A stretch of DNA of 27,093 nt from Candidatus Heimdallarchaeota archaeon (lineage in GTDB: Archaea; Asgardarchaeota; Heimdallarchaeia; JABLTI01). Location: NCBI GenBank assembly GCA_030614005.1, contig JAUWKS010000044.1, forward strand, positions 1-27,093. The letters are read 5' to 3'. Position numbers and translations under genes: made by a program. Positions 1,081-1,339 of the stretch are shown here, piece after piece. The notes under the pieces were generated by a model, which saw nothing but the letters and a program-made list of their open reading frames with translations, had not been told where the DNA came from and made no database searches. Numbering within the stretch: the first letter of the stretch is position 1; each line of letters opens with the position of its first letter.

Positions 1081-1339
1081 AAAGAAAAAAATGTTTATTA
1101 GTGGATGGGGTTCCACAATCTGAATACCCCATCCCATTTTTCCGTCTTCATATCTCGGAGTGGAGAAGTGTAAAACACCGAGGAGTTTTGAATCACACTC
1201 ACTTCTCACAAAGAAACACTAGGACTTTCAATTAATTAATGTTCTCCGGAAACAGTCAGACAAAATTAGATGCTTTTAAGAAAAAGAAGGAGAGAATACT
1301 TGGGATAAAGATGAATGACAACAAAGAAAAACAAATGAA
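1081..1339. repeat. structured dispersed repeat, copy 1 (uninterrupted)
   Basis: 1081-1269 aligns by eye to 10436-10605, and 1263-1339 aligns to 11653-11729. Stems: GGATGGGG 1103-1110/CCCCATCC 1127-1134 and GAGAAGTG 1163-1170/CACTTCTC 1200-1207. Confidence 0.9.

Follow-up and report, generated by a model that had tools for sequence, protein, structure and literature searches.

Trans-acting small RNAs (sRNAs) borne on islands and prophages are known from bacteria, IsrK of Gifsy-1 being an example with a Rho-independent terminator and the architecture of the Hfq class. Intergenic sRNAs of cultured archaea (Haloferax, Methanosarcina and Sulfolobus) are short units that run from a TATA box to an oligo-T tract and are often lineage-restricted. 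Archaeal termination depends on oligo-T, and a hairpin is not required. A literature search found no survey of small RNAs in Asgard archaea. The element described here occurs twice in a 27,093-nt stretch of DNA, termed the window as a whole, which is contig C77 of a Heimdallarchaeia metagenome-assembled genome (MAG; G000; 3.6 Mb, 90% complete). It resembles the bacterial Hfq-class island sRNAs in its own (here predicted) promoter, its size of ~100 nt, a variable 5′ hairpin, a conserved single strand, a GC hairpin with a U-run, and paralogous copies on acquired islands among unrelated neighbours. It differs from them in its archaeal host, its TATA-type promoter, the absence of sequence similarity and a U-run that lies 5–12 nt past the stem, not directly at it; an Lsm/Hfq partner and a target are hypothetical here. 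With the sRNAs of cultured archaea it shares a short intergenic unit bounded by a TATA-like box and oligo-T, and restriction to one lineage. No family of Rfam 15, archaeal entries included, matches it, and it occurs in a single uncultured Heimdallarchaeia genus. A small RNA gene carried in part on islands is a familiar kind of object, and any function or expression of this family is hypothetical. We give a probability of about 0.5 to the reading that the element represents an autonomous family of small RNA genes, with the window copies as cargo of tRNA-Tyr islands.

Copy 1 (1078–1269) and copy 2 (10433–10605) share 76% identity over ~190 nt (E 2e-30 to 3e-33), far past chance expectation for a 27-kb window, and are therefore homologues. 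The original prediction of a duplicated ~180-bp element at 1081 and 10436 was borne out by direct reading and alignment; the conserved module is bigger than 1081–1269, with flanks 953–1063 and 1262–1345 also common to other loci. Read on the minus strand, both copies have CTAATTT at their 5′ edge (1263–1269 in copy 1, 10599–10605 in copy 2), followed by a purine-rich stretch and a ATTAATTAA-type AT box. The CTAATTT box, AAATTAG on the plus strand, is kept as CTAATTTTT in groups 1–3 of the family, and AAATTAG is found again at 11653–11659, beyond a cassette inserted next to copy 2. The predicted promoter of copy 1 (1230–1249, minus strand) consists of a BRE-like purine-rich stretch and the TATA-like box ATTAATTAAT, ~21 nt upstream of the first hairpin (hairpin A), and its counterpart in copy 2 (10566–10589, minus strand) reads TATTAATTAAG. 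The position of the TATA-like box is kept in the four close copies (c1–c4), and group 2 has A-rich equivalents.

Hairpin A had been said to differ in sequence between the copies and still to pair, which holds: GTGGAGAAGTG / CACTTCTCAC in copy 1 (1160–1209, minus strand) and AACAAGAAG / CTTCTTGTT in copy 2 (10513–10545, minus strand) both form helices. The former stem has 10 bp and a single bulge, and its loop carries an 18-nt insert that also occurs in the copy of the congener G010; the latter (AACAAGAAGUG / CGCUUCUUGUU) has 11 bp including one U.G. The two differ at the base of the stem, with GUG...CAC in copy 1 versus AAC...GUU in copy 2, and both versions fold. The linker (1135–1159 in copy 1, where it reads CUCC-GAGAUAUGAAGACGGAAAAAUG, and 10491–10512 in copy 2, both on the minus strand) is a pyrimidine tract followed by a purine-rich single strand, and is the most conserved primary sequence of the family. 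The invariant linker of the original prediction is present in both copies and is longer than claimed, at 24 nt (GAAGACGGAAAAATGGGATGGGGT on the minus strand). Hairpin B is likewise common to both copies, as had been stated (GGATGGGG / CCCCATCC on the plus strand); on the minus strand it lies at 1103–1134 in copy 1 (GGAUGGGG ... CCCCAUCC) and at 10459–10490 in copy 2, with a 1-nt deletion in the distal part of the latter. The minus-strand module closes with an ACUAAU box, a spacer and a T-run, of T7 in copy 1 (1084–1102) and T8 in copy 2 (10440–10458), where the transcript would end. The predicted order on the minus strand, namely ATTAATTAAT box, ~21 nt, hairpin A, linker, hairpin B, ACTAAT, T7–8 and unrelated ORFs, was thus confirmed. 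Upstream of copy 1, the region 1262–1345 (plus strand) forms the common 5′ region of a divergent gene (start MNDNKEKQM at 1311) and recurs at 11652–11729 and in G010.

A third full copy, 77% identical, is found on contig C6 of the source genome, and the three full copies of that genome share 76–81% identity, while the copy in G010 (Heimdallarchaeota MAG HM7_B34), the nearest relative to carry the element, is 90% identical. A diverged fourth member of G000 lies on contig C4, between an EF-1-alpha-like gene and a PspC-domain gene. Covariance models were made for the four close copies (R1), for eight sequences (R2) and for a 16-member core (R3). The family as delimited here has 17 members and one weak candidate (m3), drawn from eight of ten congeners and two metagenome contigs, all of a single genus, with 1–4 copies per genome. 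The two contigs, from one metagenome, were added by a degenerate pattern scan of the metagenome collection, and their membership was confirmed by R1. Group 1 consists of three copies in G000 and that of G010; group 2 of members in G005, G006 and G003 and the two metagenome contigs; group 3 of a short form that lacks hairpin A, present in G003, G006 and G008; and group 4 of members in G005 and G004. G007, G009 and contig C4 of G000 contribute single members. A weak, diverged extra member occurs on metagenome contig Ga0114923_10000987 (L043:8776–8866), with a hairpin GGGUUGAG ... CCCAACCC followed by ACUAU; it is 3.9 kb from a strong member on the same contig and on the opposite strand. Window DNA itself occurs in cold-seep and marine-sediment metagenomes; a search of sequencing runs listed five that carry it, all of them DNA runs and none RNA.

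In other genera of the class, 71 genomes searched with the covariance models yielded no convincing member, with stricter filters applied in searches spanning >40 genomes. Pattern scans of IMG/VR returned nothing, or hairpin-only chance matches without flank similarity, and an exact scan of genome contigs returned G010 only, plus one chance match in a Sediminibacterium MAG. Two weak matches were treated as chance, one on G028:C87 because it has no hairpin and one on G008:C166 because it has 23% GC and resembles a generic terminator. ARAGORN identified no tRNA or tmRNA genes in the window. The element had been called typical of its element family, for which Rfam 15 offers no counterpart: nothing matches the element at gathering thresholds or with E relaxed to 1, where the only hits are two unrelated weak matches elsewhere in the window. 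Judged from sequence comparison, the non-coding structured element is real and conserved, and represents a new family, restricted to one genus and without an entry in Rfam 15.

A 3′ module is common to all members and consists of a pyrimidine tract ending in CCC, a purine-rich stretch, hairpin B, the box ACUA(A/G/C)U and a U-rich tail. The consensus of the purine-rich stretch is aAGAGAAAA, often followed by CGGAAAAAU, so that with the pyrimidine tract it reads UUUUCCC-aAGAGAAAA-CGGAAAAAU. Hairpin B has the consensus GGAYGGGG / CCCCRUCC with a loop of 13–17 nt, and in the 16-sequence alignment 97.7% of its positions pair, against 38–63% in slid controls. Double-sided changes affect four of its eight pairs, and comprise G-C to A-U at the closing pair, U-A to C-G via U.G, and G-C to A-U via G.U. 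Covariation in a wider alignment, looked for as a check on the original prediction, was found for hairpin B (score 0.257 versus 0.163 in shuffles, with 0 of 500 shuffles reaching it), in an alignment that was fitted to the model and whose 16 sequences are kin, many of them close, so that independent compensatory events are few. Ten of the 16 aligned members, namely those of groups 1 and 2 and that of G009, carry hairpin A. It invariably sits directly 5′ of the pyrimidine tract, and its stems are unrelated in sequence at this one place (GUGAGAAGUG, AACAAGAAG, GAAAAGAA, AGCACC and CAGUGAU). Stems without common sequence are the pattern expected where the helix itself matters. Base pairs have thus been upheld by compensatory change in hairpin B, and pairing has been kept in hairpin A across unrelated stems.

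Several other structural candidates were set aside. Long-range helices proposed by RNAalifold for the group-1 copies, one joining 5′ UUUCUGUC to GACGGAAA and the other spanning the TATA-like box, are absent in group 2 and were dropped. An antiterminator pairing considered for copy 1, between CUCCACUCC and the 5′ arm of hairpin B, has no counterpart in copy 2 or in group 2. Signatures of C/D, H/ACA and K-turn RNAs were not seen in alignments read by eye: partial GAUGA strings are limited to one subgroup, hairpin B has no internal pocket, and the 3′ box is ACUA in 11 of 16 members and ACA in two. Complements to the element elsewhere in the genome were no longer than ~17 nt.

The sense strand is probably the minus strand of the window, a call that rests on few events. 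Hairpin B contains seven G.U cells on the minus-sense strand versus two A.C cells (G.U on the other strand), and further one-sided changes in c1–c4 are U.G on the minus-sense strand. An AT box lies upstream on the minus strand, at the distance expected of an archaeal promoter. The mean difference in folding energy favours the minus-sense strand by only −1.3 kcal/mol. The TATA-like box is not alignable across all groups, and in the short forms the sole AT box (CTAATTTTTTAG) is very near the element, so that an RNA would start within the purine tract.

Open reading frames do cross the element, and a small protein gene, either a minus-strand ORF of 27–65 aa (MGWG...) or a plus-strand ORF of 37–54 aa (...PIPFFRL...), has to be weighed. 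In the four group-1 copies, ORFs of 27–65 codons traverse the element on both strands. However, the 1-nt deletion in hairpin B of copy 2 shifts every ORF that crosses the hairpin, including both of these, and groups 2 and 4 lack the ATG. Stops break each of the six frames in several members, indels shift frames, and the peptide strings that are common switch frame between groups. The 24-nt invariant block has no third-position variation, while the remaining element has diverged by ~24%. The deletion in copy 2, the missing ATG and the six interrupted frames rule the ORFs out, and the element is non-coding; a protein product is extremely improbable.

The genes next to the element are unrelated from locus to locus, and the element is independent of them. 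A co-oriented gene starts ~100–135 nt past the T-run at 8 of 11 independent loci, with a convergent gene instead at the other three, and a divergent gene lies upstream at seven. Downstream genes include small ORFs and genes for a 187-aa protein of unknown function, a PspC-type protein, a saccharopine-dehydrogenase-like protein, a C13/C14-like peptidase and a TPR protein. The frequency of co-oriented genes would suit a cis-acting leader or attenuator of the downstream gene, in which hairpin B and the U-run would form a conditional terminator and the pyrimidine tract, as the 3′ arm of hairpin A, would act as a two-state switch between two partners, the 5′ arm of that hairpin and the purine-rich linker. 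Both long groups in fact carry purine tracts upstream and downstream of the pyrimidine tract that are direct repeats matching it: GAGAAG / GAAGA with CUUCUC in group 1, and GAGAAAAG / GAGAAAAC with CUUUUC in group 2. These alternative pairings use low-complexity tracts, however, and could be fortuitous, and the short forms have no hairpin A with which to switch. No function is common to the downstream genes, a convergent gene takes their place in three locus classes, and identity falls between the T-run and the next start codon. On balance a leader is unlikely.

Two locus classes are syntenic across two to three species. Where G003, G006 and G008 have it next to the flavodoxin and 187-aa-protein genes, the element and 280 nt upstream of it are 93–100% identical, flanking coding DNA is mostly 70–90% identical, and identity falls right past the T-run. 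This drop fits an RNA that would end there, and the conserved stretch suggests that the functional unit of this class extends upstream. A block of ~370 nt that is 93–100% identical among the three species (L056:1220–1590 on G003:C154, L049 and L054) holds the 5′ end of the flavodoxin-like gene, the whole 173-nt spacer and the short-form element. The conserved non-coding unit of these loci may be a longer RNA, of ~165 nt or more, that starts near the TTAATTTATA box. A search for an empty site with the 187-aa class-B neighbour gave only paralogues, at 40–47% identity.

The flanks of hairpin B invite comparison with intrinsic, possibly bidirectional, terminators, with which the element shares a GC-rich stem set between runs of A and of T. 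The T-run of the sense strand lies 5–12 nt past the stem, and on the opposite strand a T5 run lies 1–3 nt past it; a simple terminator scanner missed the hairpin because its loop exceeds 8 nt. Placed between these two runs, hairpin B could stop transcription from either side. The element might then be an ordinary terminator or insulator hairpin, copied along with duplicated intergenic DNA and devoid of RNA function. Its A5 and T5–8 flanks agree with this, as does the T5 run on the plus strand 1–3 nt past the stem, and in two locus classes a convergent gene ends within ~10–100 nt of the element. Unlike such terminators, it has ~35 nt of extra conserved sequence, a second hairpin, homology at unlinked loci and a 13–17-nt loop that is longer than usual. 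Conservation ~35 nt upstream of the hairpin in all members, with a 24-nt invariant block in group 1, exceeds what a terminator needs, and archaeal termination calls for oligo-T, not a hairpin. Many members lie between divergent genes, where there is nothing to terminate. The occurrence of one sequence family at 10 or more unlinked loci points to common descent, not to convergent terminators. A mere terminator is an improbable explanation, on a par with the leader.

The original prediction offered an attC-like folded single-stranded DNA site as an alternative to an RNA. The element is like an integron attC site in being a strand-specific folded element of 60–140 nt that keeps its pairing over poor sequence conservation, with a cassette inserted at one edge. 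In copy 2, a 1,047-bp segment (10606–11652) sits between the element and the flank that adjoins copy 1. It holds one gene (10609–11649), a 346-aa ORF without a Pfam match, and is bracketed by 7-bp AAATTAG repeats exactly at the CTAATTT 5′ edge of the copy. No homologue of the cassette gene turned up in the other 11 family genomes, so that no second insertion of this kind was seen. Contigs of the source metagenomes show two more similarity breakpoints, at 1262 and 1274; the contigs of four DNA runs that were aligned to window positions 1–13000 were short, low-depth unitigs only. A contig joint from 1059 to 10463, considered as recombination between copies 1 and 2, is most likely a C6 paralogue or a related strain instead.

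The attC alternative fails on several counts. Instead of one imperfect palindrome there are two separate hairpins and a conserved unpaired linker of 20–25 nt, and the ends, CTAAT ... ACTAAT, are direct and not inverted, without inverse core sites. No integrase, other recombinase or cassette array lies alongside, no recombinase was found among the ORFs scanned, and several members occupy syntenic, stable chromosomal loci. Nor is there one site per cassette, as the window copies are 9.3 kb apart with many genes between them and the other members are single at chromosomal loci. The predicted association with rearrangement junctions stands in so far as there is one clean cassette insertion; a dedicated site is not supported, and microhomology fits equally well. 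The insertion at the 5′ edge looks like a microhomology event.

A broader form of the same idea holds that the element is mobile or recombinogenic DNA, either a non-autonomous repeat of the MITE or REP type or an attC-like site of cassette exchange in tRNA-Tyr islands devoid of an integrase. In favour of this, the element occurs in multiple copies and is patchily distributed among congeners, mosaic accessory DNA surrounds the window copies, and the cassette falls exactly at the CTAATTT edge, with the breakpoints at 1262 and 1274 close by. Like MITEs and REP/BIME repeats, it is short, non-coding and hairpin-forming, with dispersed intergenic copies. It differs from these in having a long conserved unpaired segment and promoter-like and terminator-like ends, at 1–4 copies per genome, and in lacking terminal inverted repeats and target duplications: the 5′ end (CTAATTTTGTC...) is not the inverse complement of the 3′ end (...ACATTTTTTT), and the flanks carry no variable duplications, both ends of the element having an identical direct CTAAT at each locus. 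There is no transposase or recombinase nearby, two locus classes are syntenic, the fold is two hairpins and a single strand where one palindrome would be looked for, and the cassette gene is unique. The 7-bp AT-rich repeat is equally compatible with microhomology-mediated insertion or deletion. A mobile or recombinogenic element is accordingly quite unlikely. More doubtful still is a composite, in which a portable module of promoter, small RNA and terminator would also serve, through its CTAATTT edge, as a preferred cassette junction in integrase-less tRNA-Tyr islands. If true, such a module would be a functional analogue of the integron attachment site, based on an RNA gene and served by a hypothetical enzyme; no comparable element is described in the aloposon paper (PMC8813620).

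The window is an accessory region, with genes for a DUF4062-STAND-TPR protein, a ParB homologue and winged-helix proteins. Direct repeats resembling a tRNA 3′ end (TCAAATCCCGGGGGCCAGACCA...) partition it at 4902–4935, 21289–21322 and 21492–21525. A matching tRNA-Tyr remnant in G010 (C41:241670–241708) is 2.1 kb from the element copy of that genome, and the group-1 copies therefore appear to travel with tRNA-linked islands. These copies sit in mosaic DNA, that of G010 combining an upstream part like that of copy 1 with a downstream part like that of C6. Elsewhere in the window, positions 1320–1456 and 5107–5243 are direct repeats 3,787 bp apart, formed by 82–95% identical 5′ regions of membrane-protein genes, and a metagenome contig from run X2, at a depth of ~4, links 5151 back to 1365, which is the junction expected from a circle or a tandem duplicate of the intervening segment.

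A separate repeated module, S3, lies downstream of copy 1 (953–1063, minus strand), outside the element proper, and accompanies c1, c3 and c4. It has its own hairpin, GACGAGAGC ... GCCCCCGUC, followed by GGAAAAGGGA; the S3 consensus comprises the hairpin GACGAGRGC ... GCCCCCGUC with a variable loop, then the conserved sequence GGAAAAGGGAGUU and a block reading GAGAGAGGU. G000 has five copies, some at ordinary chromosomal intergenic sites, with loci in the window and at C6:9513–9605, C71:45067–45142, C36:19744–19787 and C69:43690–43754; in G010 it occurs on C41 and C20. S3 seems to encode a peptide, NRTRAERSPRxRKR; in some copies a stop or frame shifts interrupt it. The module may be a distant relative or a decayed tandem unit of the element, since its hairpin resembles hairpin B of groups 2 and 3. 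In G000 (L002:880–1161, on C6) and G010 (L031:890–1171), the element and S3 are followed by a co-oriented gene for a zinc-ribbon protein of 93 aa with four cysteines; the protein is 91% identical between the two genomes, and a truncated copy follows S3 on C71.

Taken together, the compensatory changes in hairpin B, the replaced stems of hairpin A, the lack of a conserved frame, the G.U pairs of the minus sense and the promoter-like and T-run edges are evidence for a small RNA. Of the original proposal of an sRNA or leader RNA of ~100–120 nt or an attC-like site, the comparative data thus favour the first part, as a predicted discrete minus-strand RNA of ~100–130 nt. Under the small RNA reading, the archaeal BRE/TATA-like box would drive a minus-strand transcript of ~105–130 nt in the window copies and ~60–170 nt in other members, composed of a variable, exchangeable 5′ hairpin A and a conserved 3′ module, and the oligo-U run would be where archaeal RNA polymerase terminates. 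The unpaired purine-rich strand, the stable hairpin and the U-tail would be the likely working surface, which might bind a protein, of the Lsm/SmAP type or another RNA-binding protein, and/or pair with another RNA. The family would have spread by duplication inside one Heimdallarchaeia genus, with the window copies and their closest relatives riding accessory islands linked to tRNA-Tyr remnants.

Comparison thus defines a candidate RNA family that is genus-wide, with a constant 3′ module and exchangeable 5′ hairpins, and that is partly carried on mobile islands. If it is merely a terminator or a decaying repeat, it is ordinary; in either case, the 17 loci and the covariance models will allow the question to be tested once metatranscriptomes or cultures of the genus exist. 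If expressed, the family would provide a handle on RNA-binding proteins, for example of the Sm/Lsm type, and on regulatory logic in the closest archaeal relatives of eukaryotes.
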